From a virus (lineage: Duplodnaviria > Heunggongvirae > Uroviricota > Caudoviricetes): a stretch of DNA of 64,000 nt. Shown here one piece after another: positions 31,313 through 62,958 of this stretch. The position numbers and the translations under genes are program-made. Each line of letters starts with the position of its first letter. Position 1 is the stretch's first letter. The DNA lies in IMG/VR virus record IMGVR_UViG_3300032516_000008, positions 29,092-93,091 of that record; one strand, given 5' to 3'. The notes beneath the pieces were generated by a model, which was not told where the DNA came from, searched no databases, and was given only the letters and a program-made list of their open reading frames with translations.

Positions 31313-31313
31313 T

Positions 31314-33574: not shown

Positions 33575-33589
33575 ATGATTACTACTAAT

Positions 33590-37467: not shown

Positions 37468-38033
37468 ATAGTATTACAATAACAACGTGTACTCGTGTAG
37501 AATCACTTATTGGCAAATGCATCAAGTTTGACAGTCGAATCAACTTTTTAGTTGGTGAAAATGGTAGTGGCAAATCTACTATTTTACGGGCGTTAGGAGG
37601 CAATAAATTAAGTGATGATGTCCTGCAATTTAAGACAGATCTTTCAGATCCAAATGCAAAAGAGAAATTACAAAGCTACTACTTTGATTCTGAAAAAATG
37701 AATCCAAGAGTAAGATCAAGAGTAGAAACAGTTTTTGATGCTCACATGTTGTTCATGTCTCACGGTGAATGTTTGATGATCTGTACAGACATGATCAAGA
37801 AGATTCCAAAAGACAACAATCATTTGTCTTTACTTGATGAACCGGAGAGCGGCATTTCGCCATGGAATCAAGTGAAACTTCGTGACGTGTTAATTGAACA
37901 GTCAAAACATTGTCAAATCATAGTTGCGACTCATTCATTAATTTTGACAAAAATGAATATTGGTCAAGTCATAAAGTTAGGACCAAAGATCACTTATCAT
38001 TCGCCCGCATCTAGTTTTGATTGGCAAGTATGA
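37458..38033 (+). CDS. small ABC/RecF-like AAA ATPase
   Basis: Walker A GENGSGKST, Walker B/H-loop region LSLLDEPESGISP...IIVATHS. AGGAG ribosome-binding site before the ATG at 37458. Confidence 0.6.
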   Translation: MHLDSITITTCTRVESLIGKCIKFDSRINFLVGENGSGKSTILRALGGNKLSDDVLQFKTDLSDPNAKEKLQSYYFDSEKMNPRVRSRVETVFDAHMLFMSHGECLMICTDMIKKIPKDNNHLSLLDEPESGISPWNQVKLRDVLIEQSKHCQIIVATHSLILTKMNIGQVIKLGPKITYHSPASSFDWQV

Positions 38034-38236
38034 CAGTTCAGATTGACATTCGTGGTAATATCGGTCAGCAAATCAAGACTATTCGTCAATCATTGGGTTT
38101 GACATTGGCTGATGTTGCAAAGGCTATCAATGAATCAGAACCATTGCTATCTTATTACGAAAACAATAAGCGTCAACAAAGTGTAGATATTCTCAGAAAG
38201 TTTTTGAATTTCTGTGATCGAGTGAAAAAATGCTAG
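38021..38236 (+). CDS. XRE-family HTH transcriptional regulator
   Basis: IRQSLGLTLADVAKAINESEPLLSYYENNKR. Confidence 0.6.
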   Translation: MASMTVQIDIRGNIGQQIKTIRQSLGLTLADVAKAINESEPLLSYYENNKRQQSVDILRKFLNFCDRVKKC

Positions 38237-38934
38237 TGAAGATTACAACTCAATGCCAAATGGGCTGCAGTCATTGCATGGAAGATGCAAAATCTGTTGG
38301 CGAACACATGTCTCTTGAAACTTTCAAGAAAGCACTTGATTTCATTGAGCGTGTATATTCTGGTCAACGTATTATACTGGTAAGCGGCGGTGAACCGACT
38401 GATCATCCGCAGATTCAACAGTTTTTGAATGAATTGAAAGACTGGAATGCCGTTCTTCTAAGTAATGGACTATTTTGGTCTGATCTTAAGACTCGAGAAA
38501 TGATTCTAGCATCAAATGTCCTTATTCAAGTCTATAATGATCCAAAATATTATCCACTGAAAGTAGAACCTATCGATCATCCTCGAGTACTATTTGCTGA
38601 TAAAATCAACCTTCTTAGTCCCATTGGACGAGCAAGAAATTTGAGTGAGATTGCAGGTCGCACATCGCCACTATGTTTTAACTTCAGAAGCTTTTGCAAA
38701 ACGCTGAGAGACTTTCAAAAGGCAGTAATGCTTTTGAGAACAAAGGGTAAAATTTGTTCACCATCAATTGATGTTCATGGCAATGTCGTTACTGGTGAAT
38801 CTAGATTTTGTTATAAGATCGGCACTGTTGATTCTTCATTCGATGAGCTGCTACAAAACACACTTAATATGTCATGTAATAAGTGTGGCCTCGAAGACAA
38901 TCTTCCAGCAGTATACAAGAACGCAATTCACTAG
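38230..38934 (+). CDS. small radical SAM enzyme (QueE-like or activase-like)
   Basis: CQMGCSHC (C-x3-C-x2-C) and glycine-rich SAM motif VSGGEPT. Length 234 aa. Confidence 0.6.
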   Translation: MLVKITTQCQMGCSHCMEDAKSVGEHMSLETFKKALDFIERVYSGQRIILVSGGEPTDHPQIQQFLNELKDWNAVLLSNGLFWSDLKTREMILASNVLIQVYNDPKYYPLKVEPIDHPRVLFADKINLLSPIGRARNLSEIAGRTSPLCFNFRSFCKTLRDFQKAVMLLRTKGKICSPSIDVHGNVVTGESRFCYKIGTVDSSFDELLQNTLNMSCNKCGLEDNLPAVYKNAIH

Positions 38935-38940: not shown

Positions 38941-38994
38941 AAAGGGCCGGCAAAAATCCACTTGAGATGGAATCTCGCCGGCCCTGTTCTTTTC
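38941..38994. terminator. bidirectional intrinsic terminator at convergent junction
   Basis: AGGGCCGGC...GCCGGCCCT stem with inner hairpin, A-run upstream and T-run downstream. Confidence 0.6.
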
Positions 38995-39029: not shown

Positions 39030-39175
39030 CCGAACCGATTGCGCGCGATCAATTTTTCAAAATGAAAGCAAAAGTGTAGGGGCTAATTACAGCGACCCTT
39101 GCGCGCCATTTTTTTAATAAATCCTAAATTCAAAGTTTTATAATCTACTATATTCAATTAGATGTGCGCGCTACA
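39030..39175. promoter_or_regulatory. three spaced GC-palindromic TGCGCGC motifs in AT-rich convergent intergenic region
   Basis: gattGCGCGCgatc (about 39037), cttGCGCGCcatt (about 39096), atgtGCGCGCtacat (about 39160), about 60 bp apart. Confidence 0.3.
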
Positions 39176-39233: not shown

Positions 39234-39866
39234 TCAGGTCTGTTGTCGAAGATTTGACGCTAACCATTTTTTTGCCTCTTGACTAGTGTATATCTCATTG
39301 TTATCAATTATCTTACAAAATTGTTCGTATGAAATCTTTGGGAAAGCATGAATCGCTGAATCTAGTGAAACATTGTAGATTTTAGATGGACAATCTTTAT
39401 AGACATCAAATCTAGCATTGCCTCGTATATAGACCATTTCATCTTGTGTACCGCGATGTACAATGTCATGAAAGTGACTCTTATCATTAACAAATCGTCC
39501 ATCAAATCCAAGCAGATAAATCTCTTTGAATTTCAAAGCTATACCTAGCGATAATGAGAATAGTCCAACTAAATACGGATGATACAGTCCTTTTGACAAC
39601 CCGTCTAGTCCATGATATTCTTTTGCTGATAATAGCTTGAATACGTCTGCTGGCACATCACGACTGTCTCTTGTGATTTTAACGCATTTGAGGTTGTTTA
39701 TTACTTGCTGATGTTTAGAGTAGAAATCTCGATCAATCCAGATTAGTGCTGTGGGATCGTAATAGTGGCAAACGAAATTCAAACCAAATGTGAACTCATG
39801 ATTGAGCTTAGCTAAGTCAAATCCTTTTATGCTTGATCCGCCGCCGATGATTACTAATCTATTCAT
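39234..39866 (-). CDS. Cst-II-like (GT42 family) sialyl/nonulosonic-acid transferase-like protein
   Basis: RLVIIGGGSSIKGFDL matches Cst-II VIIAGNGPSLKEID. LGIALKFKEIYLLGFDGRF matches Cst-II ALGYKEIYLSGIDFY. A conserved NDKSHFH region is present. Confidence 0.5.
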   Translation of the reverse strand: MNRLVIIGGGSSIKGFDLAKLNHEFTFGLNFVCHYYDPTALIWIDRDFYSKHQQVINNLKCVKITRDSRDVPADVFKLLSAKEYHGLDGLSKGLYHPYLVGLFSLSLGIALKFKEIYLLGFDGRFVNDKSHFHDIVHRGTQDEMVYIRGNARFDVYKDCPSKIYNVSLDSAIHAFPKISYEQFCKIIDNNEIYTSQEAKKWLASNLRQQT

Positions 39867-42800
39867 TTTTGTATTTTCTTGATGCTTGAAAATGCTCTAT
39901 AACAGGTTTGCCAGCATCTTTCATTAAGTCAAATATTTGGCAATAAGTGGATGGCAAATGAAATACTTTCAATGAATGTAATGTGCTGACTGCCTCATGC
40001 AAATAAGATTGATCGAGTCTGTATTTCGTTCTATCTGCATTTACTAATTCAGTCCATTTAGCTAACAATTTTAGTGCACCGATAGTACAGTTGAAATACA
40101 TAGTGCCACCAAGAAGTTCAGTACTACCATTTGATTTAATTCTTGGATGAAATGCGAAATCAAACTCATTTAATGTAGATAGAAGTTGCGGATCTTGCTG
40201 TATTATGGCATCACAATCTACCCATACTACAGGTCGGTTATGCTTATTTAGCATGTCTTTGACAAATGTTGTACGATAGAAACAGTTATTGAACCAACTT
40301 CCTTGTGAATTAATACCGACAATTTCATAATCTAAATTGAATCGCCTTAATGAAGCTTCCAACTTCTTATATTCGTTTTCATAGCCTGTATTTTTTGTGT
40401 AGTAAGATATGAATAATGGTTTTACTAATCTAGATATCACAGGAGCGCATTCGACTTTTGCTATGTCATCAGCACATTCAACTTTTGCTATGTCAGGAAC
40501 ACATTCGATTTTTGCTATGTTAGATATGGGTTGCAATTTCAACGGTTCATGTTCAATTTGTATTTGCGGTTTAGTTACTGGTTTTGCTAGTTCACATTGA
40601 ATTAATTCTGAAAAAGTAGTTTGCTCAGTTTGTACTTCTAAGTTGTCGAATGTTAATTCATTTGAATTTGGTAATGACTGTATGAATTCATCGCCAAGAT
40701 TTTTTATGTCTTTGAATTTGTTTTGCATAATTAATTCAAACGCTTTATCCCATAAACTTTGATTAGCGGCCCAACTAAAAAACTTCAAAATATACTGTCT
40801 ATTTCTCTTACCTACTTCTTGTCGCAGTGACTTACTATTACTAAGTAATGACAATCGATTGTTCATTTCTGAAATAACATTTTCTTCAGGCAATGTACTT
40901 ACGATCCATTCTTTATCTAACAACATTCCTATACAACCAACCCTTGTTGAAACTACAGGCAATCCACAAGACATGGCCTCTAATACTACTCTTGGCATAC
41001 ACTCGCTAATACTTGTCAATACTAGTACATCAATTGAGTGATAAAATAACTTCATGTCATTTAATGATCTACCATCAGAGAAAAACTGCTTGCCCCAGTC
41101 ACTTTTCTTAATAACATTGAATTTTAGTTTATTTAGTAAATGTGGTCGCTTTACATCACGCAAACAACCGGCCCAACCAACTATAAAGTTATTGTCATCT
41201 TTCACGGCTGCAGTAAAGAAGTTGGTATCAATTGATTCTGGTAGAAACGCTACAGACTTATTAGGATACATGTTGTTCAAACAGTCCAGATGTCTCATAG
41301 ATATTGACACTATAAGATCTGGGTCAGTGTCATATTTTAGTTTTGATTCTCCACCATAACCACCAATAACTTTGATGCCTTTTTGTTTTAATACTGAAAC
41401 TAGACTGTTGATTTTAGCATGATCAATATTTGGTGCATGAATGTACACTATGTCTGCATCTATGTCAGTGACATCGATTAATCGTTTGTATGTGATATCA
41501 TGCGAAGAATACAGTTGTTGTTCTTTTGCTACAAAATAGTATGCCCAACCAAATTGGTCAATTATTTTGCAAATTCTAAGCTTTTTAGGAACTGGTTTAG
41601 ACTGTGTTACTATTTGTTTTGTTAGTGGCTTATATTCATCCCAATTTCTGAAACACATTTTGCATGTGTCTGTCATCTTATTAACGTCACATAAACTGTC
41701 TCTTAGTTTTCTAGCACTATCATTTAACCAAACATTTTCAAAATTCTTAAGTGATCCATTAGCTCTATTTGGTGCATAAACTGATCCGCAAAATGTTACA
41801 CTACCATTGCCGTTTATTCCTATTGTAGTCCAAGGTATTTGACAATTGCAACGAACTTCATTACGGTTTATTAATGTCGGAAATACCTTAATCAAATTAG
41901 CTTCGGGCAGATCTTGTAATGCATCAATTTTATGCTTGTCATCATATGTTAACACTTCTTGCCAAAACGACTCGTCATTATAATCGCTTGCTAAGTGCGG
42001 TAACAGATTTAATAAGTGCACAGTCTTTACACCTAAAGAGTTCACTAACGTCAAAAATTCAGGAATATATCGTAGATTACTTTTTGTGCATACGTAGGAA
42101 CAATACGTGGGTAAACCATTACTTACGCAGAGTCCTATTCCTTGTAAGACAGTATTAAATATCAATGATTTGTTTATTTCATTATGCATCTTTGCATTTG
42201 ACGCGTTTAAGCTTATAGATATATAGTCTGGTCTGTTTGCTAATAGGCTATTGATTTTTTCAACTATTAGTGATCCGTTTGTTATTAGTCCAACAACTTT
42301 GTTTCTTGATTTTAGAAATGATATGATGTCAAAAAGACTATCACATAAAAAAGGTTCTCCGTAGCCAGCACAACAAACGCCTCTAATTGATGGATGTTTG
42401 ATTAACAGATCACTGACATTTTTTAGTGTCATGTCAATCGACTGTTCAATTGATTGCGAATTACGATAGCAAAATCTGCAGTTGAAATTACATTTTGATG
42501 TTAGATACAGGTTTGCACTAACAGGTGGATTCATAAAACTTCTCATTGTTTCAAACGATGTATTTCTGTTTCTAAAGTCTTTCTCACCAACTTGAACAGC
42601 GTCTGTAATCAGACTTGTATATGCACCAAGTAAAGCATATAAATTCTGTTCAGTTGGTTCAGCTTTCAACATTGACCATAACTTTACAGGTAGGTCACTC
42701 ATCCAGATATATTTGAACTGTTTGAATTTGTCAAGTAAATTACGATATCTATCAAATATTCCTTCATTAGACCAATATGGTGCATGCTGGCCAACTACAT

Positions 42801-43245
42801 TAGTCATTAATGTAATTTCATATTTGTCATTTTTCATTCTATCCATTTGTTCAACTTCGCACGACATTGAGGACAAGTCGTATGGATATCTCTTAAGTAT
42901 GTCGTGCTTGTAAATCTTGACACCATAAATTTCAAAATTCAAATGTACATCAATCAACTTACAAGCAATCATAGCTGTCATTGGTGCAGATTCAACAGCA
43001 TACTTGTGTAAGGTTTCAATACCGTTTGCATTCATGACCATATCTTCATCAATTTCAATATAGTATCGAGTCTTGCAAGAATCTATCATGCACTGAAAAG
43101 CTCTTGACATTGGATGAACGTTTTTGATAATCTCGACTTTGAATGAAACTGTTTGAGAGTTTAATGACTGCAAGCATGCGTCATAGCAAGGATTATGACC
43201 GCTACTTATGACAAAAACTGTTAAGTCAGATAAAAACACGCTCAT
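39859..43245 (-). CDS. four-domain enzyme: GT2 glycosyltransferase - radical SAM/SPASM - GT4 glycosyltransferase - linker repeats - GT-A (DxD) nucleotide-sugar transferase
   Basis: N-terminal GT2 motifs (VFVISSGHN...SLNSQT, EIDEDM). Radical SAM LTSKCNFNCRFC plus GYGEPFL, with SPASM-like cysteines CNCQIPW...GSVTFCGSVY. GT4 motif EAMSCGLPVVSTRVG. 3x IAK(I/V)EC linker repeats. C-terminal VWVDCDAII. Confidence 0.7.
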   Translation of the reverse strand: MSVFLSDLTVFVISSGHNPCYDACLQSLNSQTVSFKVEIIKNVHPMSRAFQCMIDSCKTRYYIEIDEDMVMNANGIETLHKYAVESAPMTAMIACKLIDVHLNFEIYGVKIYKHDILKRYPYDLSSMSCEVEQMDRMKNDKYEITLMTNVVGQHAPYWSNEGIFDRYRNLLDKFKQFKYIWMSDLPVKLWSMLKAEPTEQNLYALLGAYTSLITDAVQVGEKDFRNRNTSFETMRSFMNPPVSANLYLTSKCNFNCRFCYRNSQSIEQSIDMTLKNVSDLLIKHPSIRGVCCAGYGEPFLCDSLFDIISFLKSRNKVVGLITNGSLIVEKINSLLANRPDYISISLNASNAKMHNEINKSLIFNTVLQGIGLCVSNGLPTYCSYVCTKSNLRYIPEFLTLVNSLGVKTVHLLNLLPHLASDYNDESFWQEVLTYDDKHKIDALQDLPEANLIKVFPTLINRNEVRCNCQIPWTTIGINGNGSVTFCGSVYAPNRANGSLKNFENVWLNDSARKLRDSLCDVNKMTDTCKMCFRNWDEYKPLTKQIVTQSKPVPKKLRICKIIDQFGWAYYFVAKEQQLYSSHDITYKRLIDVTDIDADIVYIHAPNIDHAKINSLVSVLKQKGIKVIGGYGGESKLKYDTDPDLIVSISMRHLDCLNNMYPNKSVAFLPESIDTNFFTAAVKDDNNFIVGWAGCLRDVKRPHLLNKLKFNVIKKSDWGKQFFSDGRSLNDMKLFYHSIDVLVLTSISECMPRVVLEAMSCGLPVVSTRVGCIGMLLDKEWIVSTLPEENVISEMNNRLSLLSNSKSLRQEVGKRNRQYILKFFSWAANQSLWDKAFELIMQNKFKDIKNLGDEFIQSLPNSNELTFDNLEVQTEQTTFSELIQCELAKPVTKPQIQIEHEPLKLQPISNIAKIECVPDIAKVECADDIAKVECAPVISRLVKPLFISYYTKNTGYENEYKKLEASLRRFNLDYEIVGINSQGSWFNNCFYRTTFVKDMLNKHNRPVVWVDCDAIIQQDPQLLSTLNEFDFAFHPRIKSNGSTELLGGTMYFNCTIGALKLLAKWTELVNADRTKYRLDQSYLHEAVSTLHSLKVFHLPSTYCQIFDLMKDAGKPVIEHFQASRKYKNE
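40445..40525 (-). repeat. 3 x 27-bp tandem repeat encoding IAK(I/V)EC(V/A)xD linker units inside the multidomain gene
   Basis: gcRcattcRaYttttgctatgtYa repeated three times. Confidence 0.8.
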
Positions 43246-43772
43246 ACTTTTGTCGCTTCTACATTTAAGCTAATAAGAGTTCCATTTATTTTATCTTGTG
43301 GAATATATGCTTGACTGTAGTCATCAACATCTGCATGCTCTGTTAGTCTCCAATCATAACGTCTAATATCTTTTGCACCTGCTAATTCAAGTACATGTTT
43401 CAAAGACTTAAAGTCAAATCCTGTATAGTGAAAATTGTACAAGTAATTGCACCTACCAAATATAGGGCCTAGTATTAATGAAATATCATCTGTTTTCTCA
43501 TATACTTTAAGTAGACTTTGCATATCTGGCACAGATATTCTCAATGTACCATTTACTTTTAGCACTCTTAACCATTCATGAAGAACATCTATAATGACTT
43601 TTTTGTGAAAGTGCTCTAATACATGACAACTATAAACTACATCACATGATTCATCTTCAATCATTGGTAGACGATCAACACTATTCACTATATCAATATG
43701 AGGGTATTCTATAACATCAATGTGCGTATAGCCAGGGATATATCGTTTGCCGCAACCTAAATGTAACTTCAT
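43242..43772 (-). CDS. class I SAM-dependent methyltransferase
   Basis: MKLHLGCGKRYIPGYTHID motif I. Confidence 0.6.
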   Translation of the reverse strand: MKLHLGCGKRYIPGYTHIDVIEYPHIDIVNSVDRLPMIEDESCDVVYSCHVLEHFHKKVIIDVLHEWLRVLKVNGTLRISVPDMQSLLKVYEKTDDISLILGPIFGRCNYLYNFHYTGFDFKSLKHVLELAGAKDIRRYDWRLTEHADVDDYSQAYIPQDKINGTLISLNVEATKV

Positions 43773-44731
43773 TATTTTGTCCTTGTTGCAAGTATATTTG
43801 ACAGTTCTAATAATTGATCGTGATAATGTGACTGACAGTCAAATCCTAAGTCTTTACATAGAAATCTCATGCATGACTCAAAAGTTCTCATACCAACTAA
43901 GACTTTTTGATGTTTTGCAATTGATTGCTGATACTCTTGAATTTTTTGTCGCGACATGCTTTTAAGATATTTCATTAGATCAGCTTCAGACCAGAAATCT
44001 CTGTAATCAACGTAGCACTCTTTAGGAATAAATGTTGACGCATCTTTTGGCCCTAAATAAACAGGTATACAACCAGCTGCTATCAAATCGAACGGTTTTT
44101 CAGTCAAGTGACCCAAATCTAATTGACTTTCTATAGCAAAAGCAAACGTATAGTCTGATAGCAGTTTCACTTTAGCAGAATATCGCGGTAAGTTTTTGTC
44201 GCAAGCATCACTAGAATCTTTCTTAATTTCTAATGGTACTGGTTTATCTGAACTTCCATAAACATCCATACCCAAATCTTTGAACTTGCGAATTATAGTG
44301 TTTCTTGGCTCACCATCACGAAAATAGTTGGTTATAACAGTACCAATGAATTTTGATCGGTTATTGACTGGACAACATTCATCTTCAGTAATCCACATCG
44401 GTATCGGCATATATTTAACAGTGTCACCATCAACATCAGTCGAATTATAAGTATAGATTCTTCCAAACTTTTGCTGATATCTTAGTCTAAATCCATGAGG
44501 CTGACGATAACGACCCTCGTAATGAATCAATACTCGTTTTGAATAGTCAAATCTGTCAATGACTGCTGATACTAGTTCTCTGCGAGCAGCATCATAAGGT
44601 TGAAATACTACAAACCAATCATCTTTACTTGGTTCAACATCTGCTGTAATATTTTTGACTTCAATACTACAGTACTTATACCAATGCCAATAAGACATAG
44701 TATAGATCATCGTTGCTCCATCAATTGCCAC
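43772..44731 (-). CDS. GT10-family (alpha-1,3-fucosyltransferase-like) glycosyltransferase
   Basis: YTFAFAIES...GHLTEKPFDLIAAGCIPVYLG matches the FucT motif YKFYLAFENS..DYITEK....GAVPVV. Confidence 0.55.
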   Translation of the reverse strand: MAIDGATMIYTMSYWHWYKYCSIEVKNITADVEPSKDDWFVVFQPYDAARRELVSAVIDRFDYSKRVLIHYEGRYRQPHGFRLRYQQKFGRIYTYNSTDVDGDTVKYMPIPMWITEDECCPVNNRSKFIGTVITNYFRDGEPRNTIIRKFKDLGMDVYGSSDKPVPLEIKKDSSDACDKNLPRYSAKVKLLSDYTFAFAIESQLDLGHLTEKPFDLIAAGCIPVYLGPKDASTFIPKECYVDYRDFWSEADLMKYLKSMSRQKIQEYQQSIAKHQKVLVGMRTFESCMRFLCKDLGFDCQSHYHDQLLELSNILATRTK

Positions 44732-45309
44732 TCTTGCACAGTTAGTAAATTGAGTATTTGCTTTCTATACTTACAAAGAAAAGCAAAATCAAACATTGTT
44801 TCAGCACATTCAAATAATTCTTGCTGTCCTGGCTTTATAATTCCAATGCCTTCATCTACATCAATAGTACAGATTGACAAATTAGGATCAAACATTCTAT
44901 AAAACAATATTGCTTTCCAAACTGATCCGTTCCAATGAGACACAGTAATGTTCTCTGTTTGATGAACTTCTAATTCAGGATTACAATCATGTAAAAGTAT
45001 AATTCCGTCAGTACTCAAACATTTTAGTGAATTTGAAATGTCTTTGATCACTTGAGCTGCTTTGTGATCGCCGTCTATAAAAATGATATCGTATTGACTA
45101 GTATTACTTGAGAAAAATGCATCAGAACTCATAAGATGATTACAGGGATTTACAGGATCAACTGCATCTTTTACTGCAGCACTAATTTTGTTGAAATTGG
45201 CAGATGCATTTCCAATGCCTATTTCAAGATAACGACAATTTTGTTTTTTGCTTGTGTAGAAATTGATGATGTCTGTTCTATTCATGATTTTTTCCAGTAT
45301 GCTCCCCAA
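44707..45309 (-). CDS. SAM-dependent methyltransferase (CmcI/class I-like)
   Basis: IFIDGDHKAAQVIKD...DGIILLHDC. Confidence 0.45.
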   Translation of the reverse strand: MGSILEKIMNRTDIINFYTSKKQNCRYLEIGIGNASANFNKISAAVKDAVDPVNPCNHLMSSDAFFSSNTSQYDIIFIDGDHKAAQVIKDISNSLKCLSTDGIILLHDCNPELEVHQTENITVSHWNGSVWKAILFYRMFDPNLSICTIDVDEGIGIIKPGQQELFECAETMFDFAFLCKYRKQILNLLTVQEWQLMEQR

Positions 45310-45983
45310 GCGTCAATAATGACGATCGGATCGTGAATATTATGTAGTTTTCTAAAATCTTCAACAGCTGTTCTGCAATTTACCCAGTTATAATCATCAA
45401 TAATAACGAACCCATTTTTCTGGACTTTATGATATAACGCAGTTAATGAATCCCAAGTTGACTCATATAAGTCACCATCTAATCTCAATACAGCAATTTT
45501 ATCTATCATACTATTTGTAAGAGTATCTTTGAACCAACCCTTTAGAAATACTACATTAGTGTCTAGTAATGCATACTTTTCAAAATTATGCTTTACTTGA
45601 TCAACATCAACTCTTAAATAGTCAATGGTATGCATAGTACTATTCTTGTCAATTGGATACTTTTCTGTATTAGGCGCAGGCAAACCTTGAAAAGAATCAG
45701 CTACAAACACTTTTCGATCTGTAATATTGTATGCTTTCAAAATACCTTGCATAAAAATTACAGCACCACCACGCCACACACCGGTTTCAATTAGATCACC
45801 TTGCACATCATTTGCTATAACACTTTCGACACAATGTTGTATATTGTCAAGTCGTTTACGGCCTATCATAGTGAACGCTCGCTTAGGCCAATACGTACCA
45901 TTAGTTGTATGAGTCGTCTCTTCTTCATATATTATGTCAAGCAACGATCGCTTCAGCAAATCTAAGTACAGCTCTTTACACAT
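45282..45983 (-). CDS. TylF/MycF-family macrocin-type sugar O-methyltransferase
   Basis: FTMIGRKRLDNIQHCVESV...GDLIETGVWRGGAVIFMQGIL...RKVFVADSFQGLP matches the TylF signature. Confidence 0.7.
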   Translation of the reverse strand: MCKELYLDLLKRSLLDIIYEEETTHTTNGTYWPKRAFTMIGRKRLDNIQHCVESVIANDVQGDLIETGVWRGGAVIFMQGILKAYNITDRKVFVADSFQGLPAPNTEKYPIDKNSTMHTIDYLRVDVDQVKHNFEKYALLDTNVVFLKGWFKDTLTNSMIDKIAVLRLDGDLYESTWDSLTALYHKVQKNGFVIIDDYNWVNCRTAVEDFRKLHNIHDPIVIIDAWGAYWKKS

Positions 45984-46796
45984 TTAGTACTCAAATCTAT
46001 TCATTGTGTTAACGCTTGCATGTATTTGACACGTGTTATTAATGTCACCTCGTAAAATACATATCCATAAGCCTGCATTGTTAGTATCATAAACTACATA
46101 CTTACACTTACTCAAAATAGCAATCGCAGCCAAATAATTGACACCCAAATCGTAATTACTCATTTTTGTATCACGTTGTAAATTATGCATCACTTGATCT
46201 GTTTTTGTCAACGGCATTTCTTCAATGTGAAACGAATTAGGTAACTCGTGTTTGAAATAGTCTAATGCCTGTTGTTGATCTGTCTGTATAAGTACCCTAT
46301 AATTTGAAATGTCCTTAATCGGACTGATTGGTTTCAAATAATACTTTGGATGCACTCTTGGCACTTCAAGAATTTTATCAGTACCTCTATAAAGAATTGC
46401 AATAGTGTGATCAAAATCTATACTGTACTTTTGAATAAATGATTCTTGTTTAACTATTACTTCACTAGACAAATTGAAATATGTATCTCTAATTGGTTTT
46501 AGTACACTAAAATCAAACTTATTACAATCACCAATCATTGCATTAAAATAAATGTCTTGTCCTGTCTTAATATCACTGTTAACTGTCGTAAAATATAGAT
46601 CATAAACATTTCGACTCAATCTGTCAGGCTTGTTCCAAGCTGACGTATATGGCCATAATATTTTCACAAGTCTTGACGCATTTTTGTGTATCGATAGTAG
46701 ACTCTTAAATGTCACGCTAGCATTAGATAACAAACCACAATCATGTTTGTCAAGACTTAATGTGCTATTTTCTTGATCGTATGTTACGCCGTACAT
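45984..46796 (-). CDS. hypothetical protein in glycosylation island
   Basis: ORF tightly packed in the operon (ATGA overlaps). Confidence 0.4.
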   Translation of the reverse strand: MYGVTYDQENSTLSLDKHDCGLLSNASVTFKSLLSIHKNASRLVKILWPYTSAWNKPDRLSRNVYDLYFTTVNSDIKTGQDIYFNAMIGDCNKFDFSVLKPIRDTYFNLSSEVIVKQESFIQKYSIDFDHTIAILYRGTDKILEVPRVHPKYYLKPISPIKDISNYRVLIQTDQQQALDYFKHELPNSFHIEEMPLTKTDQVMHNLQRDTKMSNYDLGVNYLAAIAILSKCKYVVYDTNNAGLWICILRGDINNTCQIHASVNTMNRFEY

Positions 46797-47848
46797 TATA
46801 GGTTCTTTTCTAATATTCTAATTTCTCTAGAACTAACTATTACTTCTCTAGTTTTGAAGCCTGTCAATTGCAATATGTACTCGTCAAAATTGTCTCTTTT
46901 AGATTCATACATCCATGAGAACTGATCTTCATTCGGATTTGGTAATGTATAGATTATAAACTTAGTCTTTTGTGCTACTGTTTGCAAGAATTTTTCAAAC
47001 ACTTCTATAGGACATAATCTCGATATATGATGCAGTATTGCTAGACACAATGTGCAATCTGCACTTTCACTAGTCTCAATGTAGTCTATTGCATTTGTAT
47101 TATGACAAGAAAACCCTATTTTGTTTAGCAGTATACTTGCTATTTGAAATCTAATTTTGTCAGATTCAATGCCTATACCATGCTTAATCAGATCTTTTAG
47201 TTTGTAAAGAGTGAAACCGTGACAAGTACCCAAATCTAATACGCTGTCAATCTTGTTTTGTTTGAAGAAGTCGCAGATAATTTGCTCTTTGTTACCGTCA
47301 ATTGCTGTGGCCCAGTCACTAAAGTCAGGATGCGGTATCGGCTGATATAGCATTTTGTTAGGATACAAATCTTCAATTTCTTTGTATAGTTCAGCCCATC
47401 CCGGTAATCGCTCACATATTGTAACTTCTATAGGCAACCGCTTGAAAGTCAATAAGCTTATTCTATGCATGCCATCCCAAATGTCAATGGCGCCATTACA
47501 GCGAACTTTCACAGGTCTATATCCATAATAGTGCGCAGAATTCGTATCAGTTTGCAATATGCTATATTCCTCTTGCCACTTAGGAGCTATCAAATACATA
47601 GCTCTATATCTAGCACATTGCTTCACAATGTCATCTTCATTTTTCAATATTCCGCCCCACACAACATTGTCAGCTATAAACATTGACATTAACCATTTGT
47701 AATAGAAAGTAGATTCTAAAGGTATGTCAATATTTTCTTGCCATTGCTGCGCGGTCAAATAATGAGGACCAGATTTAATGAAATCTAGTAAATCAGTACT
47801 CCAAGGATCATTACCAATTAGTACTTTTTTCGGTATCATAATTTTCAT
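46796..47848 (-). CDS. protein with C-terminal class I SAM methyltransferase domain
   Basis: DSVLDLGTCHGFTLYKL motif I. Confidence 0.5.
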   Translation of the reverse strand: MKIMIPKKVLIGNDPWSTDLLDFIKSGPHYLTAQQWQENIDIPLESTFYYKWLMSMFIADNVVWGGILKNEDDIVKQCARYRAMYLIAPKWQEEYSILQTDTNSAHYYGYRPVKVRCNGAIDIWDGMHRISLLTFKRLPIEVTICERLPGWAELYKEIEDLYPNKMLYQPIPHPDFSDWATAIDGNKEQIICDFFKQNKIDSVLDLGTCHGFTLYKLKDLIKHGIGIESDKIRFQIASILLNKIGFSCHNTNAIDYIETSESADCTLCLAILHHISRLCPIEVFEKFLQTVAQKTKFIIYTLPNPNEDQFSWMYESKRDNFDEYILQLTGFKTREVIVSSREIRILEKNL

Positions 47849-47915
47849 CTAAGAGATCAAAAAAAAAGCTGATAACATATTCTATGTCATCAGCTTTTTC
47901 AAATTTATGAATTAG

Positions 47916-48596
47916 TTACACTCTTCTAAAAGGCTGCTCAAACGGTGACGGTGCAGTTATACTAACTCCCATTGCTGCAGGTCTGCCAGTTGCAGGTTTT
48001 GCAACAACATTAACGATATAATTGTAAGCATCACTCCAAATTGATCCATCATTCACTCGTACAGGTATTGATCGTGAAGTAGTTGACAAACTACCTTCAA
48101 TTAAAATCTTCACTGATGTACTGGTTGATGAAATTATCGAGTATCCTATACCAGTAGAAGCTAATAGTGTGAATTGTTGAGGATATATCTTACTAGTAGT
48201 AACAATCAAATTGTTAAGAGCTATGGTAAGATATGAACCAATGTACAACTTAGGAAAACTAGTCTGATTTGAAATAACAGGCATCTCAACAACTGATACA
48301 CTAAGACCAAACCAATCACTCCATGTTGAACCACCGTCATTACTAATTCTAACAGCGACGGATAATGAACCAACATAACTAGTTGTAGGAATGACGTCAA
48401 ATTCTTCTACTATACCTGAATCTTGATTCACTGCATAATGAGCTCCAGCTTGACCTTCAATCACCCAATCTTTTCCACTACCATCAGGAAAATCAGGATC
48501 ATCAGTGAATAGATCTACCAAATGAACTACTAATGTCTTGTTTTTTCCTGAAACAATCGGACTAACTCTTTGACCAGTAATAACAGGAGTTGCCAT
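47916..48596 (-). CDS. Ser/Thr-rich Ig-like (cadherin/BIG-like) domain protein, first gene of minus-strand island
   Basis: AGGA ribosome-binding site on the minus strand. Two beta-sandwich-like segments with S/T-rich stretches (SSTSTSV, LSTTSRS). Confidence 0.45.
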   Translation of the reverse strand: MATPVITGQRVSPIVSGKNKTLVVHLVDLFTDDPDFPDGSGKDWVIEGQAGAHYAVNQDSGIVEEFDVIPTTSYVGSLSVAVRISNDGGSTWSDWFGLSVSVVEMPVISNQTSFPKLYIGSYLTIALNNLIVTTSKIYPQQFTLLASTGIGYSIISSTSTSVKILIEGSLSTTSRSIPVRVNDGSIWSDAYNYIVNVVAKPATGRPAAMGVSITAPSPFEQPFRRV

Positions 48597-48933
48597 ACAT
48601 TTGTCCTTTCAATAATGTTGATTACTATGATTGTTTAGATCAGATTCAAATTTGACAGTAAATTGCGAAGGGCTTCATATTTAGAGTGATAGAATAAAAC
48701 AATGATCAATTACATGTGGTTTTTCTACGATTATAGGCGTGATTAATGTTCTTGGGAAATAATTGTACATCTTTTGATAATTTGATTATATTATACACAA
48801 GAACGATTTTCACTAAAGGAACGAAGATGCGAATTACCACCAGTACGTTTAATAATAACACGTACAGTTGTTGCTTTAATAGCAACAGCAAACTGGTGGA
48901 GTTCGTGTAGATAGATAACTCAAAATCTTCTAC

Positions 48934-48973
48934 TAAAAAAGCTCCACTGGCGAAAGTCAATGGAGCTTTTTTA
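48934..48973. terminator. bidirectional intrinsic terminator
   Basis: AAAAAAGCTCCA-ctggcgaaagtca-ATGGAGCTTTTTT. Confidence 0.7.
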
Positions 48974-49053: not shown

Positions 49054-49125
49054 GGAGACTTAGCTGAGATGGATTAGCGAGTGGTTGAAGCCCACTAGAG
49101 GACAGCTCGATACTGTCAGTCTCCA
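49054..49125 (+). tRNA. tRNA-Phe (anticodon GAA)
   Basis: Manual fold: acceptor GGAGACT/AGTCTCC, D-arm GCTG-AGATGGAT-TAGC, anticodon arm AGTGG-TTGAAGC-CCACT, T-arm GACAG-CTCGATA-CTGTC. Confidence 0.75.
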
Positions 49126-49196
49126 TTCTTCATGCGGTCAAGTTCTAGACTTTATCTTGTATTGATAGTTCGTAATGTACTAACAAGGAGTATATT

Positions 49197-50438
49197 ATGA
49201 ACATATGTAAATGCGGTAAATCATTCAAAAATGCAGGAGCGCATGCTATTCATCGTAATAGTTGTCTTTATGTTAAGCATCCAAAAGAATGTGAACTCAT
49301 TAGATCAGATTATAAAAATAAGTTGTTAATTTCAGATATCAAGAAAAAATATTGTTTCACAAGAAATGAAATTCATGCAGTTGTCAAAGACATATTACGA
49401 AGTGATAGCGAGACAAATAAAATTGCCCATACAAACCCTAATAGAAAAAAATATCATAATATCAATAGTAATTTTGCTAAGAAAGTGATGTGTGAAAAAT
49501 GTAAAAGAACAATTAGTGTTGTAAATCTTTATAAACATACTTGTGTAAGTGAAGAAGTTCGTGAAAGTATAATCAAGTTATATAATCTAGGCTTATCACC
49601 AAGGGATATAAGAGCGAAAGGATATGACAAAAGGGTCATTAGTTTTTCATTAAGTCATAAAAGACGATCTTTGTCTGATTCTATTAAAGCTAGATATAAA
49701 AATCATCCAGAGACATTTAAGCTTTCTAAAGCAACAAAAGATAAGATTAGACAATCAATATTAAAAGCTAGACAAAATGGAATTGCTTATAGTTGGACAA
49801 GAAAGAAGCCATCATATGCTGAAAGTAAATTTCACGAATTTTTAGTTAAGTTAGGATTGAAAGAAAATGTTGATTTTTTTACAGAATTTCCATTTTCTAT
49901 TTATAGAGCAGATTTTTATTTTCCAAAACATAAACTTGTAATTGAGATTGATGGTGAACAACATGTAAAATATGATGTAATACGAGAACGAGATAAACGA
50001 AAAGATGAATATTTGAAAAATCATGACATTAAAGTTTTAAGGATAAGATGGAAAGATGTGCATCATAATCATGAAGTAATTTATGATGAAATTAAAGACA
50101 TTTTGAATAATTCACAAAACTTTGAATTAAGACTAGATACTTTCACTAAAGCACAAGCTAGACGGTTACAACTATTGACAGAGTTTGAAATAAATCGTGA
50201 TCAATTAAAAATTGAAAAGCAACAAATAAAAAAGCTAGAGCAACAAGCTAGAACTGCACAACAAACTAAAGACATTTTACAAAGTGATTTTACAAAGCGT
50301 GGCACAGTCGAAAATCTTAGTAATAAATGGAATGTCTCACATACACAAGTTAGACGGCTCGTGAATAGATATATGACATGCTGTGCGGGCAACCGCTTAG
50401 GGGTTCGAGTGCCTTCTCGTCAGCCATTAGTTGCATGA
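49197..50438 (+). CDS. free-standing homing-endonuclease-like protein (N-terminal Zn-finger/NUMOD-like repeats + DUF559/Vsr-like PD-(D/E)xK nuclease domain)
   Basis: CKCGK...H...C motifs and a C-terminal YRADFYFPKHKLVIEIDGEQH...RDKRKDEYLKNHDIKVLRI. Confidence 0.6.
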   Translation: MNICKCGKSFKNAGAHAIHRNSCLYVKHPKECELIRSDYKNKLLISDIKKKYCFTRNEIHAVVKDILRSDSETNKIAHTNPNRKKYHNINSNFAKKVMCEKCKRTISVVNLYKHTCVSEEVRESIIKLYNLGLSPRDIRAKGYDKRVISFSLSHKRRSLSDSIKARYKNHPETFKLSKATKDKIRQSILKARQNGIAYSWTRKKPSYAESKFHEFLVKLGLKENVDFFTEFPFSIYRADFYFPKHKLVIEIDGEQHVKYDVIRERDKRKDEYLKNHDIKVLRIRWKDVHHNHEVIYDEIKDILNNSQNFELRLDTFTKAQARRLQLLTEFEINRDQLKIEKQQIKKLEQQARTAQQTKDILQSDFTKRGTVENLSNKWNVSHTQVRRLVNRYMTCCAGNRLGVRVPSRQPLVA

Positions 50439-50443
50439 TTTGT

Positions 50444-50520
50444 TGGCCCGTAGCTCAGCTGGCAGCAGCGAGCGGCTGTTAACCGCTAGGTCGTAAGTTC
50501 AAACCTTACCGGGCCAGCCA
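50444..50520 (+). tRNA. tRNA-Asn (anticodon GTT), CCA encoded
   Basis: Acceptor TGGCCCG/CGGGCCA, anticodon arm AGCGG-CTGTTAA-CCGCT, T-arm GTAAG-TTCAAAC-CTTAC. The D-arm is atypical. Confidence 0.7.
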
Positions 50521-50594
50521 TTTTTTTTAACTGAAAGGAGATATGATGACGTCCAAACCAATGCGCACTTAGTGGCGCTAACAAAGGAGTCATC

Positions 50595-50831
50595 ATGTCG
50601 CATCCGGTTAGCAAGAGAGATCGCTTTCTTGTTGGGGTCAAGAAGAGTAAGAAACGCGTAACTAACTTTTACACGTATCTTACGAAGTTAGAGCATCCTG
50701 AATGGGTTGCAAGAGCAGAACAGATGCGAAGAAATACTACAAAGACTTGTTCATGTAGCGGGTGCGGCAATCCGAGAAAGTATTTTGGTGAGAAAACAAT
50801 GCAAGAAAAACGTTACGGAGAGTTGGAGTAA
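50595..50831 (+). CDS. hypothetical protein (Cys motif CSCSGCGNP)
   Basis: ORF with GGAG ribosome-binding site. The 3' end overlaps the start of the tRNA-Ser gene. Confidence 0.35.
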   Translation: MSHPVSKRDRFLVGVKKSKKRVTNFYTYLTKLEHPEWVARAEQMRRNTTKTCSCSGCGNPRKYFGEKTMQEKRYGELE

Positions 50832-50901
50832 TGGTATCTCAGCAGTTTGCTAAACTGCCGACCGAAAGGTCTTGTCGGTTCGAATCCGGCACTCTCCGCC
50901 A
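50817..50901 (+). tRNA. tRNA-Ser (anticodon GCT), long variable arm, CCA encoded
   Basis: Acceptor GGAGAGT/ACTCTCC, anticodon arm GCAGT-TTGCTAA-ACTGC, variable arm GACC-GAAA-GGTC, T-arm GTCGG-TTCGAAT-CCGGC. Confidence 0.8.
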
Positions 50902-50921
50902 TTCTAGTCTTTGAGGATCTG

Positions 50922-51272
50922 ATGTGGATAGACGATAAAAGTGATGGTTGTGTGTATGACACAATTGATTGTAATAAGTGTGGCAATTGCGGTCGGAAGT
51001 TTGACATAGAAGATGAGGATAAATTGGACTTCATTGTAGAAAATGAAACAGTAAATATATCATTTCAGTCAATGAATGACATGTTACAGATGCATGTGCA
51101 TTGCGGAATGAAGTCCAAGAAGATACCGTTGCTATTAGAGAAACATCAAGTAACAAAGATCTTGAGTAAACTTGATGATCTTAAAGAAAGAACATTTGAA
51201 TCATTTGACTATTTTACAATGATAGTTGCAGGCTGTGCAGAAACAGTAATGAAAGGCGGAATGCACAGATGA
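50922..51272 (+). CDS. hypothetical protein
   Basis: The track ORF at 50847 starts inside the tRNA-Ser gene, so the likely start is Met at about 50922. Confidence 0.3.
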   Translation: MWIDDKSDGCVYDTIDCNKCGNCGRKFDIEDEDKLDFIVENETVNISFQSMNDMLQMHVHCGMKSKKIPLLLEKHQVTKILSKLDDLKERTFESFDYFTMIVAGCAETVMKGGMHR

Positions 51273-51658
51273 AACAGTATCCGTCAATTTCACATGATAT
51301 ACGATCGGTTCAAGCGTATGCGTTCGACAAACTTGATGGCTCGAATATTCGAGCGGAGTGGCATCCAAAAAAAGGCTTCTGGAAATTCGGTAGTAGAACA
51401 AGACTGCTCGGTACTGACCAGCCGTGGCTCAGTAAAGCAGACGAACTCGTCAAACATAAATATGGAGACGAACTCTCAAAGATTTTTAGGGCACAGCGGT
51501 ACGAGAAGGTCGTGGCATTTTTTGAATTCTACGGTGCAAACTCATTCGCAGGACACCACGTAGACGAGCAACATACAGTCACGTTAATTGATGTAAGTGC
51601 TCATCGACATGGTATTGTACCACCAAAGGAATTCGTGAAATTGTTTTTGCACAATTAA
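51269..51658 (+). CDS. truncated nucleotidyltransferase (RNA/DNA ligase-like) N-terminal fragment
   Basis: Motif I-like DKLDGSNIR and motif III-like VAFFEFYG. Only 129 aa, and it ends immediately before two tRNA genes. Confidence 0.35.
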   Translation: MKQYPSISHDIRSVQAYAFDKLDGSNIRAEWHPKKGFWKFGSRTRLLGTDQPWLSKADELVKHKYGDELSKIFRAQRYEKVVAFFEFYGANSFAGHHVDEQHTVTLIDVSAHRHGIVPPKEFVKLFLHN

Positions 51659-51661
51659 TGT

Positions 51662-51736
51662 GACGGCATAGCCAAGCTGGTAAGGCAGCAGTCTGCAAAA
51701 CTGTTATCGGGAGTTCAAATCTCCCTGTCGTCTCCA
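51662..51736 (+). tRNA. tRNA-Cys (anticodon GCA), CCA encoded
   Basis: Acceptor GACGGCA/TGTCGTC (one GU pair), anticodon arm GCAGT-CTGCAAA-ACTGT, T-arm GGGAG-TTCAAAT-CTCCC. Confidence 0.7.
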
Positions 51737-51743
51737 TATAAGT

Positions 51744-51816
51744 GCCGCTATAGCTCAGTTGGTAGAGCAACTGCTTCGTAAGCAGTAGGTCGGAGGTTCA
51801 AATCCTCTTGGCGGCT
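51744..51816 (+). tRNA. tRNA-Thr (anticodon CGT)
   Basis: Acceptor GCCGCTA/TGGCGGC, D-arm GCTC-AGTTGGTA-GAGC, anticodon arm ACTGC-TTCGTAA-GCAGT, T-arm GGAGG-TTCAAAT-CCTCT. Confidence 0.8.
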
Positions 51817-51886
51817 TTTCATTGACAATTGGCATGATTAATCGTATATTGGAATTTTCTATCATTCTATGTAAGGAGAAAATGAA

Positions 51887-52186
51887 ATGGTTATCTGTGA
51901 GAACGTGAAGACATGTGGAATTCTCAAGACAGCTACGGCCGGTAAAAACAAAAATGACAAGATGATTATTGCATGCGATCATGCAGCTGAGCACGAGCAT
52001 ACAGAAAAGTGCGCGAACTCAATGTGTCTGCGTTGCAGTCCGGCAGCATCAAACTGTGTTGAAGTGCTCAAACCGGTTGAAGAGGCACTTGTCGCTGCTG
52101 TAAATACAGTTATCGATGCACCTCACGTAGAAGCAGCAAAGACTGAACCGGATGTCATCGAACAACAACAGGGTTGTCCTGCTTAG
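51887..52186 (+). CDS. Cys-rich hypothetical protein
   Basis: ORF with ribosome-binding site AAGGAGAAAATG. Confidence 0.4.
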   Translation: MVICENVKTCGILKTATAGKNKNDKMIIACDHAAEHEHTEKCANSMCLRCSPAASNCVEVLKPVEEALVAAVNTVIDAPHVEAAKTEPDVIEQQQGCPA

Positions 52187-52326
52187 CATGGAATCATGAA
52201 GTTTTTCAATAAGGATGTAGCTATGTTGTAGATTATCGGCTTCACATAGGTGCACATACGAGCACCGCCTGATATACTTCTACGTTAATTGTCTGTCAAC
52301 AAACAACAATAAACTAGGAGTATATC

Positions 52327-52891: not shown

Positions 52892-52898
52892 TGGAAAT

Positions 52899-62948: not shown

Positions 62949-62958
62949 CTGAATTTAT

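Follow-up and report, generated by a model that had tools for sequence, protein, structure and literature searches.

The 64,000-nucleotide (nt) stretch analyzed here, referred to as the window (positions 29,092 to 93,091 of IMG/VR record IMGVR_UViG_3300032516_000008), is part of a 99.6-kb metagenome contig (ENA ERZ27248201 k141_4215613) from a large, uncultivated tailed phage. Between positions 39234 and 48596, it carries an island of nine minus-strand open reading frames (ORFs), A to I in the order of transcription (226, 350, 270, 233, 200, 319, 176, 1128, and 210 amino acids [aa], respectively), in which a gene for an immunoglobulin (Ig)-like protein is followed by eight enzyme genes. The large non-nested ORFs in the rest of the window are all on the plus strand apart from a single 133-aa gene at 58408-58809, and the initial annotation, according to which the nine genes oppose every other large gene, is therefore correct with this one exception. 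From B to I, each start codon abuts or overlaps the preceding stop codon (ATGA, TAATG, or 8-nt overlaps) with zero intergenic gap, which is the signature of a translationally coupled operon. All of the reading frames are intact, with their starts and stops coupled. The features of the locus are as follows.

48934-48973, both strands: bidirectional intrinsic terminator on the promoter side of the operon; hairpin with A/T runs
48730-48813, minus strand: two candidate sigma-70-like promoters with perfect TATAAT -10 boxes, 130 to 190 nt upstream of A; low confidence
47916-48596, minus strand: gene A, 226 aa; two Big_9/Cadherin_5-type Ig/cadherin-like domains plus a C-terminal tail
47862-47900, minus strand: internal intrinsic terminator/attenuator between gene A and the eight enzyme genes
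46796-47848, minus strand: gene B, 350 aa; WbdD-type class I methyltransferase domain preceded by a ParB/Srx-like domain (DGxHR) at the N terminus
45984-46796, minus strand: gene C, 270 aa; fold of the guanosine diphosphate (GDP)-fucose-dependent fucosyltransferases (GT23/GT65/GT68/GT37), from a fold search
45282-45983, minus strand: gene D, 233 aa; TylF-type sugar O-methyltransferase (PF05711, 2.7e-91; 305.9 bits against a cut-off of 23)
44707-45309, minus strand: gene E, 200 aa (TTG start); Methyltransf_24 class (PF13578, 1.3e-9, above cut-off)
43772-44731, minus strand: gene F, 319 aa; GT10 alpha-1,3-fucosyltransferase-like; sequence FAFAIESQLDLGHLTEK
43242-43772, minus strand: gene G, 176 aa; Methyltransf_11 class (PF08241, 4.3e-8, above cut-off)
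39859-43245, minus strand: gene H, 1128 aa; fusion of GT2-like, radical SAM-SPASM-like, GT4, and Nucleotid_trans-like GT-A modules
42532-43245, minus strand: H residues 1 to 238; signature module of the cassette, a divergent GT-A domain of the GT2 type whose DxD motif is DEDM
41611-42531, minus strand: H residues 239 to 545; radical SAM core plus SPASM/twitch-like auxiliary-cluster region
40711-41583, minus strand: H residues 555 to 845; GT4 (GT-B) domain
39862-40443, minus strand: H residues 935 to 1128; Nucleotid_trans-like GT-A domain with a VDCDA motif
39234-39866, minus strand: gene I, 210 aa; GT42 (Cst-II)-like transferase, of a family that uses cytidine monophosphate (CMP)-activated sugars
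38941-38994, both strands: bidirectional terminator 240 nt downstream of gene I, common to a convergent plus-strand radical SAM gene

The two flanking terminators, both proposed in the initial annotation, form strong hairpins on both strands (folding z-scores of -5.0 to -8.3). The one at 48934-48973 (minus strand, -21.6 kcal/mol, z-score of -6.0; plus strand, -26.3 kcal/mol, z-score of -8.3) divides the operon from a plus-strand tRNA-Phe gene (49054-49125), and the one at 38941-38994 has folding energies of -27.6 and -36.5 kcal/mol (z-scores of -5.0 and -7.0). The third terminator (47862-47900), which is new to this analysis, consists of an 18-bp stem followed by T9 (-21.2 kcal/mol; z-score of -7.6) and lies directly after gene A, 13 nt before the gene B start. 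The same hairpin is found in the related phage contig L005, and in another contig (L029), where the A homologue directly precedes H, a hairpin of other sequence with a T-run follows the A homologue. Because this terminator would attenuate transcription into the enzyme genes, A is probably made in excess. The number of sigma-70-like sites in the region does not exceed that in shuffled sequence, and the two promoter sites are therefore candidates only.

The 1128-aa protein H had been read in the initial annotation as a GT2-radical S-adenosylmethionine (SAM)/SPASM-GT4-GT-A enzyme, and Pfam supports this reading, with the SPASM and the C-terminal match falling just under their cut-offs. Its N-terminal domain is, judged by its sequence relationships, a divergent subfamily of the glycosyltransferase (GT) family GT2. 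PF00535 matched 12 of 17 family members (best match, 1.6e-5), the window copy itself giving no match, and an hhalign comparison with a bona fide GT2 cluster gave 74% probability with the DEDM motif aligned with DADD. The radical SAM domain that follows has the motif C252-x3-C256-x2-C259 and a clear match to PF04055 (1.6e-17; 64.6 bits against a cut-off of 29.5). Its auxiliary region, which scored below the SPASM cut-off (PF13186, 8e-4; 20.1 bits against 21.5), has four Cys residues that are invariant across the family (C468, C486, C528, and C531) compared to seven for a full SPASM domain, and this fits one auxiliary cluster. No NCBIfam equivalog reached its cut-off for this domain, and the PDB matches were generic, viperin-like, and limited to the core. 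Peptides or proteins are the substrates of most characterized SPASM-type radical SAM enzymes, and twitch enzymes such as BtrN alter sugars by dehydrogenation or epimerization. The GT4 domain is well supported (PF00534, 6.3e-12, 45.8 bits against 26.4; PF13692, 2.3e-11, 44.6 bits against 27). The C-terminal GT-A domain matched PF03407 at 5.9e-4 (20.3 bits, below the cut-off of 22), and three of the four family members gave a match. PDB profile searches with the GT2-like and C-terminal domains returned nothing useful. When H was searched against 50,697 GenBank phage records, only three weak partial matches were found, and no record matched the GT2-like domain. The linker at residues 846 to 934 (40444-40710), which precedes the C-terminal domain and is hypervariable in relatives, contains a threefold repeat, (D)IAK(I/V)EC, that is unique to this phage. 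GT2-radical-SAM homologues in other phage contigs (proteins P0009-P0012; L106, 10001-12649) contain inteins, labeled Intein_splicing and LAGLIDADG_3, which suggests that the gene is conserved and important in those phages.

Profile searches of the remaining enzymes assigned nearly all of them to the families proposed in the initial annotation. The GT10 call for F is supported by PF00852 (7.2e-13; 49 bits against a cut-off of 23.9), which aligns over model positions 4 to 137 of 182; the metagenome gene call starts F at 44710 and gives 312 aa. The TylF call for D is supported by the Pfam match given in the list above. Of the three further SAM methyltransferases proposed, E and G belong to Pfam methyltransferase families as expected, and the third, B, is instead a two-domain ParB/Srx-WbdD-type protein. 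For E, the metagenome gene call places an ATG start at 45285 (192 aa), which makes an ATGA overlap with D. The Cst-II/GT42-like call for I, which has no Pfam match, is supported by phrog_4603 (1.1e-11) and by a modest match of its family profile A3 to Cst-II (1ro7, 6e-4; residues 1 to 199), with further matches to Cst-I (2p2v) and 9c08. Invariant residues in this family include G8, G10, and S12 of a GxGxS turn, L118, L119, G120, and D122 of an LLGxD motif, and H131. Gene C had been left unassigned. A fold search identified it as a second fucosyltransferase-fold enzyme with the GT-B-variant fold common to FUT8, NodZ, and POFUT1/2, and its nearest viral fold analogues are cyanophage "fucosyltransferases." Since C has no Pfam, NCBIfam, or PDB sequence match, it represents a new sequence family. 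R137, in a YRGTDK sequence that we take to resemble the HxRRxD-type motif, is invariant across the family.

Gene B combines two domains. The B-family profile A2 (22 sequences) matched the methyltransferase domain of WbdD (4azw, 4ax8, and 4uw0) at 1e-19, with profile positions 174 to 357 aligned to chain residues 27 to 220 and including a conserved YQxIxHPDF sequence. The N-terminal profile A10 matched the ParB/Srx-fold serine kinase SbnI (5ujd and 6nr6) at 6e-5 across the invariant DGxHR core. WbdD is the chain terminator of the Escherichia coli O9a O-antigen, where it first adds a phosphate to the terminal mannose and next methylates that phosphate (PMC3482155). B ends at its methyltransferase domain, and the eukaryotic-like kinase and the C-terminal coiled-coil/membrane-binding region of WbdD are not there; B is therefore not a WbdD orthologue. 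By analogy, we propose that B is a kinase-methyltransferase that caps a glycan by a WbdD-like action. A tblastn search of B against the same GenBank phage records found no match.

Gene A, at the head of the operon, is preceded by a good Shine-Dalgarno sequence (GAAAGGA). The initial annotation had called its product a Ser/Thr-rich Ig-like protein, and both parts of this description agree with our data. Its Ser-plus-Thr content is 21.7%, compared to 9 to 15.5% in the other proteins measured, and the A-family profile A6 retrieved 304 representative proteins, mostly tandem arrays in proteins of 1 to 4.8 kaa in which the module is present up to 18 times. All seven relatives that were scanned consist of Big_9/Cadherin_5/Cadherin_4 arrays, and three of them have the type IX secretion domain CHU_C. 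A BLASTP comparison of the two halves of A was not significant (E value of 8.5). By remote homology, A would thus consist of two bacterial Ig/cadherin-like domains, followed by a conserved 28-aa C-terminal tail terminating in QPFRR. Hydropathy analysis found no signal peptide and no hydrophobic segment in A. Ig/cadherin-like domains are commonly displayed on phage particles, and A is proposed to be a substrate of the island enzymes or a virion decoration protein. An A-like gene lies inside the cassette in four of four lineages that have the C-terminal GT-A domain on H, with a gene order that differs each time, and the 44 remaining locus groups have no such gene; conversely, this GT-A domain was found only in those four lineages. 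A 142-aa single-domain relative of A lies between the B and H homologues in contig L027 (7948-8376), with a strong Shine-Dalgarno sequence and a downstream hairpin, and its C terminus, RRGQPFNS, echoes the QPFRR tail.

Several components expected of other glycan pathways were looked for among precomputed Pfam labels on called genes at record positions 8.3 to 88.4 kb, that is, 80 kb of the 99.6-kb contig. No sugar-nucleotide biosynthesis family was found in the island or among these labeled genes, as the initial annotation had stated for the island. The labels likewise include no flippase, ABC transporter (Wzm/Wzt or KpsMT), Wzy polymerase, ligase, or phosphoglycosyl transferase/lipid-carrier initiator, no integrase or lysogeny function, and no thymidylate-synthase-like hydroxymethylase, C5-cytosine methyltransferase, TET/5mYOX, DpdA, or base kinase. 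None of the nine island proteins has a membrane segment or signal peptide by hydropathy (maximum KD19 of 1.46); all nine are soluble by this measure, and no GtrA/GtrB-type or polytopic Gtr membrane protein is present in the island. With no membrane segment and no export or lipid-carrier labels, the product of the operon would start, and probably stay, in the cytoplasm, where virions assemble.

The same island was recovered on eight further contigs. In two IMG/VR phage contigs of 126 to 128 kb, L005 and L006, the same genes are found in the same place, with H at 86% and 70% identity, respectively. The island proteins are conserved as much as, or more than, the backbone proteins in these comparisons; G is the most conserved of them (99% identity in L005 and 83% in L006). 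The ratio of nonsynonymous to synonymous substitution rates (dN/dS) is 0.02 to 0.19 for every island gene, like that of backbone genes. Some differences were apparent. The TylF gene D is missing from L005, the closest relative, and in L006 there is one additional gene and no convergent radical SAM gene, from which it follows that the module evolves by cassette gain and loss. The synonymous divergence (dS) from L005 is about 0.12 for B and C (45984-47848 versus L005 6094-7955), compared to 0.26 to 1.5 for all of their neighbors. This low-divergence patch, together with the absence of the adjacent TylF gene in L005, looks like a recent recombination patch and deletion inside the island.

Beyond these close relatives, a search with the H family found about 100 further loci, which fall into 48 nonredundant groups of phage and metagenome contigs, some of 250 to 390 kb. 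The identity of the GT2-like domain across these groups is 29 to 86% (43 to 58% in most). In 23 of the 48 groups the GT2-like domain is fused or adjacent to a radical SAM domain, and the B family is present and co-occurs with the GT2-like unit in 23 of 48. The set from B to H, without A and I, recurs in phage contigs L008 (269 kb) and L009 (93 kb). Elsewhere, the partners of the core include sulfotransferases, FkbM and CmcI-type methyltransferases, an epimerase, two unknown families, and GT2, GT4, and GT25 domains, some of them in multi-GT fusions of 1,000 to 1,400 aa. A PHROG scan of recurrent neighbors in L017, L060, and their relatives found one peptidase and nothing structural. A Gp23-like Pfam match for one neighbor cluster, c14 (E value of 0.0012), was weak and was not confirmed.

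The distribution in cellular genomes was different. With the GT2-like domain as the query and one genome per species of bacteria and archaea, 80 loci were found, mostly GT4-GT2 proteins in clusters with other GT2/GT4 genes. B homologues are missing from all of these loci, and radical SAM matches were seen in only two. The best cellular-genome match (43% identity) is L112 (CAZJYD010000051.1, 8042-8737), a 25-kb contig binned with a Bacteroidales metagenome-assembled genome (MAG). Its cassette, which contains a GT2-radical-SAM fusion, a GT4 gene, two sulfotransferases, and an epimerase, looks like a phage cassette. Together with the CHU_C domains in the relatives of A, this contig hints at a Bacteroidota host, the evidence being circumstantial. 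As far as current sampling shows, phages invented the combination of GT2-like domain, radical SAM domain, and ParB/Srx-WbdD methyltransferase, using polysaccharide-type parts.

We consider it very probable that the island is an operon that assembles and tailors a glycan in the cytoplasm and that selection maintains it in the phage lineage; families, folds, and synteny support the claim in the initial annotation of a self-contained glycan-building and tailoring operon that draws on host sugars. Among the enzymes, we count six GT and four methyltransferase domains, a single radical SAM enzyme, and a single kinase-like domain. In the cytoplasm, the transferases would use host nucleotide sugars to build an oligosaccharide or short polymer; going by family membership, these sugars may be a GDP-fucose-type donor, a CMP-sugar, and a uridine diphosphate (UDP)- or GDP-hexose. 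The TylF, Methyltransf_24, and Methyltransf_11 enzymes would O-methylate sugars, and the radical SAM domain, fused to the most conserved transferase, may alter a sugar or prepare the acceptor residue. B would phosphorylate a terminal hydroxyl and methylate the phosphate to leave a methyl-phosphate cap, a ParB/Srx-type kinase replacing, by analogy, the kinase of WbdD. From linkage, we infer that the acceptor in this clade is most plausibly the Ser/Thr-rich, two-Ig-domain protein A, and glycosylated A would be displayed on the virion surface. A is favored because it heads the operon with a good ribosome-binding site, is followed by an attenuator, is linked to the C-terminal GT-A domain of H, and has Ser/Thr-rich, cytoplasmic domains of a display type.

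That the glycan is placed on a phage protein is the reading we prefer, and we hold it tentatively, at a little less than an even chance. A broader form of it, in which the GT2-like-radical-SAM unit and the ParB/Srx-WbdD protein are the core of a phage-specific protein glycosylation system that makes an O-methylated, methyl-phosphate-capped virion glycan coat, with an unusual linkage or sugar introduced by radical chemistry and with no need of host secretory or lipid-carrier machinery, and is widespread in uncultivated large and huge phages, is possible and rather unlikely. Several observations count against placement on a phage protein. Lipid-linked O-antigen or exopolysaccharide is what WbdD, the nearest solved relative of B, works on, and likewise the bacterial relatives of the GT2-like domain, which are GT4-GT2 proteins in polysaccharide-type clusters. 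Most loci with the GT2-like-radical-SAM and B core have no gene A, so A is not a universal acceptor and other acceptors must exist. The four lineages with an A-like gene form one clade, so the co-occurrence may reflect inheritance and not selection. The terminator after A is absent in L006, and the AlphaFold2 model of A has a predicted local distance difference test score of 37, which made it unusable for a fold search. Finally, the island is surrounded by replication and repair genes and not by head genes.

The ancestry of B and of the GT2-like domain would fit a rival role of the island in remodeling the host envelope, in which an undecaprenyl-linked O-antigen or capsule-type glycan is extended or replaced at the cytoplasmic face, capped in a WbdD-like manner, and exported by host transporters and ligase, for example to exclude competing phages or to prevent progeny from adsorbing to debris. 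The families GT2, GT4, GT10, and GT42 are typical of lipopolysaccharide and lipooligosaccharide synthesis. The resemblance of B to the O9a chain terminator (PMC3482155), the clustering of bacterial relatives of the GT2-like domain with other GT2/GT4 genes, and the way in which GT clusters of pelagimyophages and cyanophages are usually interpreted (PMC7029224 and PMC12801897) all favor envelope remodeling. However, no island protein (0 of 9) has a membrane-anchoring segment, and no initiating transferase, transporter, polymerase, or ligase was seen in the 80 kb, where the lack of integrase and lysogeny labels also leaves the logic of temperate serotype conversion without visible support. The B family and the GT2-radical-SAM fusion, which would be expected in bacteria if O-antigen machinery had been borrowed, are absent at 79 bacterial genome or MAG loci, and envelope remodeling leaves the linkage to the Ig-like gene A and the attenuator layout unexplained. 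On balance, we regard envelope remodeling as a doubtful alternative that deserves to be taken seriously.

Other products were considered as well. A soluble glycosylated small molecule or peptide, similar to mycofactocin or to a glycosylated ribosomally synthesized and posttranslationally modified peptide and serving in host takeover or signaling, would fit the solubility of all island proteins and the combination of radical SAM/SPASM, GT2, and methyltransferase enzymes, which echoes MftC, MftF, and MftM. The NCBIfam matches to mycofact_rSAM (3.7e-10) and MftM (0.004) are weak and far below cut-off, dozens of unrelated radical SAM models score equally well or better with none at cut-off, and a precursor peptide, an RRE/MftB-like protein, a peptidase, and a dehydrogenase partner are all absent. 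The six transferase domains and the two fucosyltransferase-type enzymes speak for a complex glycan and not for a cofactor tail. A mycofactocin-like product is quite improbable. DNA hypermodification, the least supported of the three roles put forward in the initial annotation, would mean that hydroxymethylated bases in phage DNA receive sugars from the transferases and that these sugars are then tailored by the methyltransferases, as a means of evading restriction. The ParB/Srx fold is often found in DNA-binding proteins, E matches PHROGs annotated as "DNA methyltransferase," and DNA metabolism genes surround the island. Among solved structures, however, the serine kinase SbnI and not a DNA-binding ParB is the best match to the ParB/Srx domain of B, the linked enzymes for hydroxymethyl bases on which such modification depends have no label in the 80 kb, and we know of no DNA substrates for TylF, GT10, GT42, or FUT8-fold enzymes. 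Phage GT-A and GT-B enzymes do build multi-sugar glycans on 5-hydroxymethylcytosine (bioRxiv 10.1101/2023.12.21.572611), but radical SAM, GT2, fucosyl, and O-methyl components are not mentioned in that report, and we judge this role highly improbable. The last alternative, named in the initial annotation as a refuting scenario, is that the island is a recently acquired, possibly nonfunctional fragment of a bacterial polysaccharide locus. Its opposite strand, its bacterial-type enzyme families, and its slightly lower guanine-plus-cytosine (GC) content (0.33 to 0.35, compared to 0.37 to 0.39 in the flanks, with the GC skew flipping across the island) would suit such an origin. It is contradicted by the synteny and purifying selection described above, which mean that the island is neither a recent bacterial fragment nor decaying: even where protein identity has fallen to 70%, phage contigs keep the nine genes in the same order and position, and the dN/dS values are low for every one of the intact, coupled frames. 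Phage and metagenome contigs yielded 48 locus groups with the core, but the bacterial-genome contigs examined contained neither the fusion nor B. The chance that the island is such a fragment is close to negligible.

Placement of the glycan on a phage protein would have precedents. In mycobacteriophages (Che8 and Corndog/cluster O), operons of GT and O-methyltransferase genes glycosylate capsid and tail-tube subunits, as summarized in PMC11600133 and PMC12619734, which cite Freeman 2023. As far as those summaries go, the two systems share tandem phage GT genes with an O-methyltransferase, a cytoplasmic location, and the use of host sugar donors. The island is larger, with its six GT and four methyltransferase domains and the radical SAM and ParB/Srx components, and adds fucosyltransferase-type and GT42-type enzymes and the Ig-like lead gene. 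Attachment to the virion was shown for the mycobacteriophages, whereas for the island it is predicted. A tblastn search of the 50,697 GenBank phage records with H and B gave no mycobacteriophage match, so these two proteins have no detectable homology there. The O9a system (WbdA/B/C GT4 transferases and WbdD; PMC3482155) resembles the island in its soluble or peripheral multidomain GTs and its bifunctional capping protein. It differs in that the eukaryotic-type kinase and coiled coil of WbdD are replaced in B by the N-terminal SbnI-like ParB/Srx domain; the island, which is in a phage, has no Wzm/Wzt, WecA-type initiator, or ligase, and O9a has no radical SAM, fucosyltransferase-type, or GT42-type enzyme. 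Aquatic myophages carry clusters of GT2, GT4, GT10, GT11, and GT25 genes, in which radical SAM cassettes have been noted (pelagimyophages, PMC7029224; cyanophages S-SCSM1, S-SCSM2R, and P-SSM2, PMC12801897). Unlike the island, these clusters usually include sugar-nucleotide genes (epimerases, KdsA/B, and RmlC). Their published descriptions proceed one gene at a time, and a GT2-radical-SAM fusion, a ParB/Srx-WbdD protein, and an Ig-like lead gene are not reported in those two papers. Phage-encoded glycosylation cassettes as such are thus already a known kind. The statement in the initial annotation that the gene combination is not a described system accordingly has to be narrowed: GT plus O-methyltransferase operons and GT/radical-SAM cassettes are known in phages, whereas this enzyme set was not found described. 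In our literature search, we found no description of the GT2-radical-SAM core, its ParB/Srx-WbdD partner, the Pfam-less fucosyltransferase-fold family, or an attenuated Ig-like lead gene. The chlorovirus PBCV-1 has cytoplasmic multidomain enzymes, for example, A064R, and methylated, fucose- and rhamnose-containing glycans on its major capsid protein, and the island is similar to it in its virus-encoded multidomain transferase and methyltransferase machinery. PBCV-1 is a eukaryotic virus with N-linked capsid glycans made independently of host secretion, and it has no radical SAM or WbdD-like component.

The genome in which the island lies encodes a baseplate-wedge-like protein, very large fiber-like proteins, DnaB and other helicases, a NAD-dependent ligase, PolX-PHP, RtcB, and 16 tRNAs. 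No close relative of it was found among the 50,697 GenBank phage records, and a near-identity search with the island DNA gave no match to GenBank phages. One neighboring gene may be connected with the island.

38230-38934, plus strand: radical SAM gene, 234 aa, convergent with the island (PF04055, 3e-8); system membership uncertain

This gene lies beside the island in L005, and a 37%-identical homologue is found 8.6 kb from the cassette in L012 and L013. A second extra-island radical SAM gene (57122-58015) lies about 240 nt downstream of RtcB (55715-56878), with a 65-aa ORF between them, and neither gene matches a specific family. The sequence TGCGCGC, of which the entire 64 kb has only five copies, occurs three times, spaced 60 to 65 nt apart, at 39040-39171 between the last island gene and the terminator; the copies could be operator sites or small hairpins, and a 71-aa helix-turn-helix-type ORF (38021-38236) is close to them. 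Upstream of the island are an NfeD and SPFH/flotillin gene pair (30731-32708) and the PolX-PHP DNA polymerase gene (33575-35248), and the called gene at 19990-21300, which is labeled Trigger_N, FKBP_C, and Trigger_C, encodes a trigger-factor homologue. The tRNA-bearing stretch adjoining the island contains two DUF559/MTES_1575-type endonuclease genes (49197-50438 and 54842-55714), probably homing endonucleases. The tRNA genes form clusters at 49054-52971 and 62859-64000 and include a suppressor-type tRNA with the anticodon CTA, which reads TAG (52898-52971). Stop-codon recoding that affects the island was considered and rejected: of the window's 42 large ORFs, 9 stop at TAG, and translation with table 11 leaves the island ORFs uninterrupted. 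Any TAG recoding must therefore be confined to genes outside the window, for example, late genes.

GT clusters are common in aquatic and huge phages, yet almost none has a known product, and the default assumption that they act on host O-antigen is rarely tested. The island offers a compact, conserved test case, with a candidate acceptor inside the operon and no export machinery. It brings together features not previously noted in phages, namely, the GT2-radical-SAM fusion, the ParB/Srx-WbdD-type putative cap enzyme, and a new fucosyltransferase-fold family, and its enzymes are candidates for new glycan chemistry, including radical modification, methyl-phosphate capping, and methylated fucose-type sugars. 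If the virions are indeed glycosylated, virion glycosylation would extend from mycobacteriophages to environmental large phages, which would bear on how particles adsorb, how stable they are, how grazers or immune systems recognize them, and how "auxiliary metabolic" GT genes are annotated.

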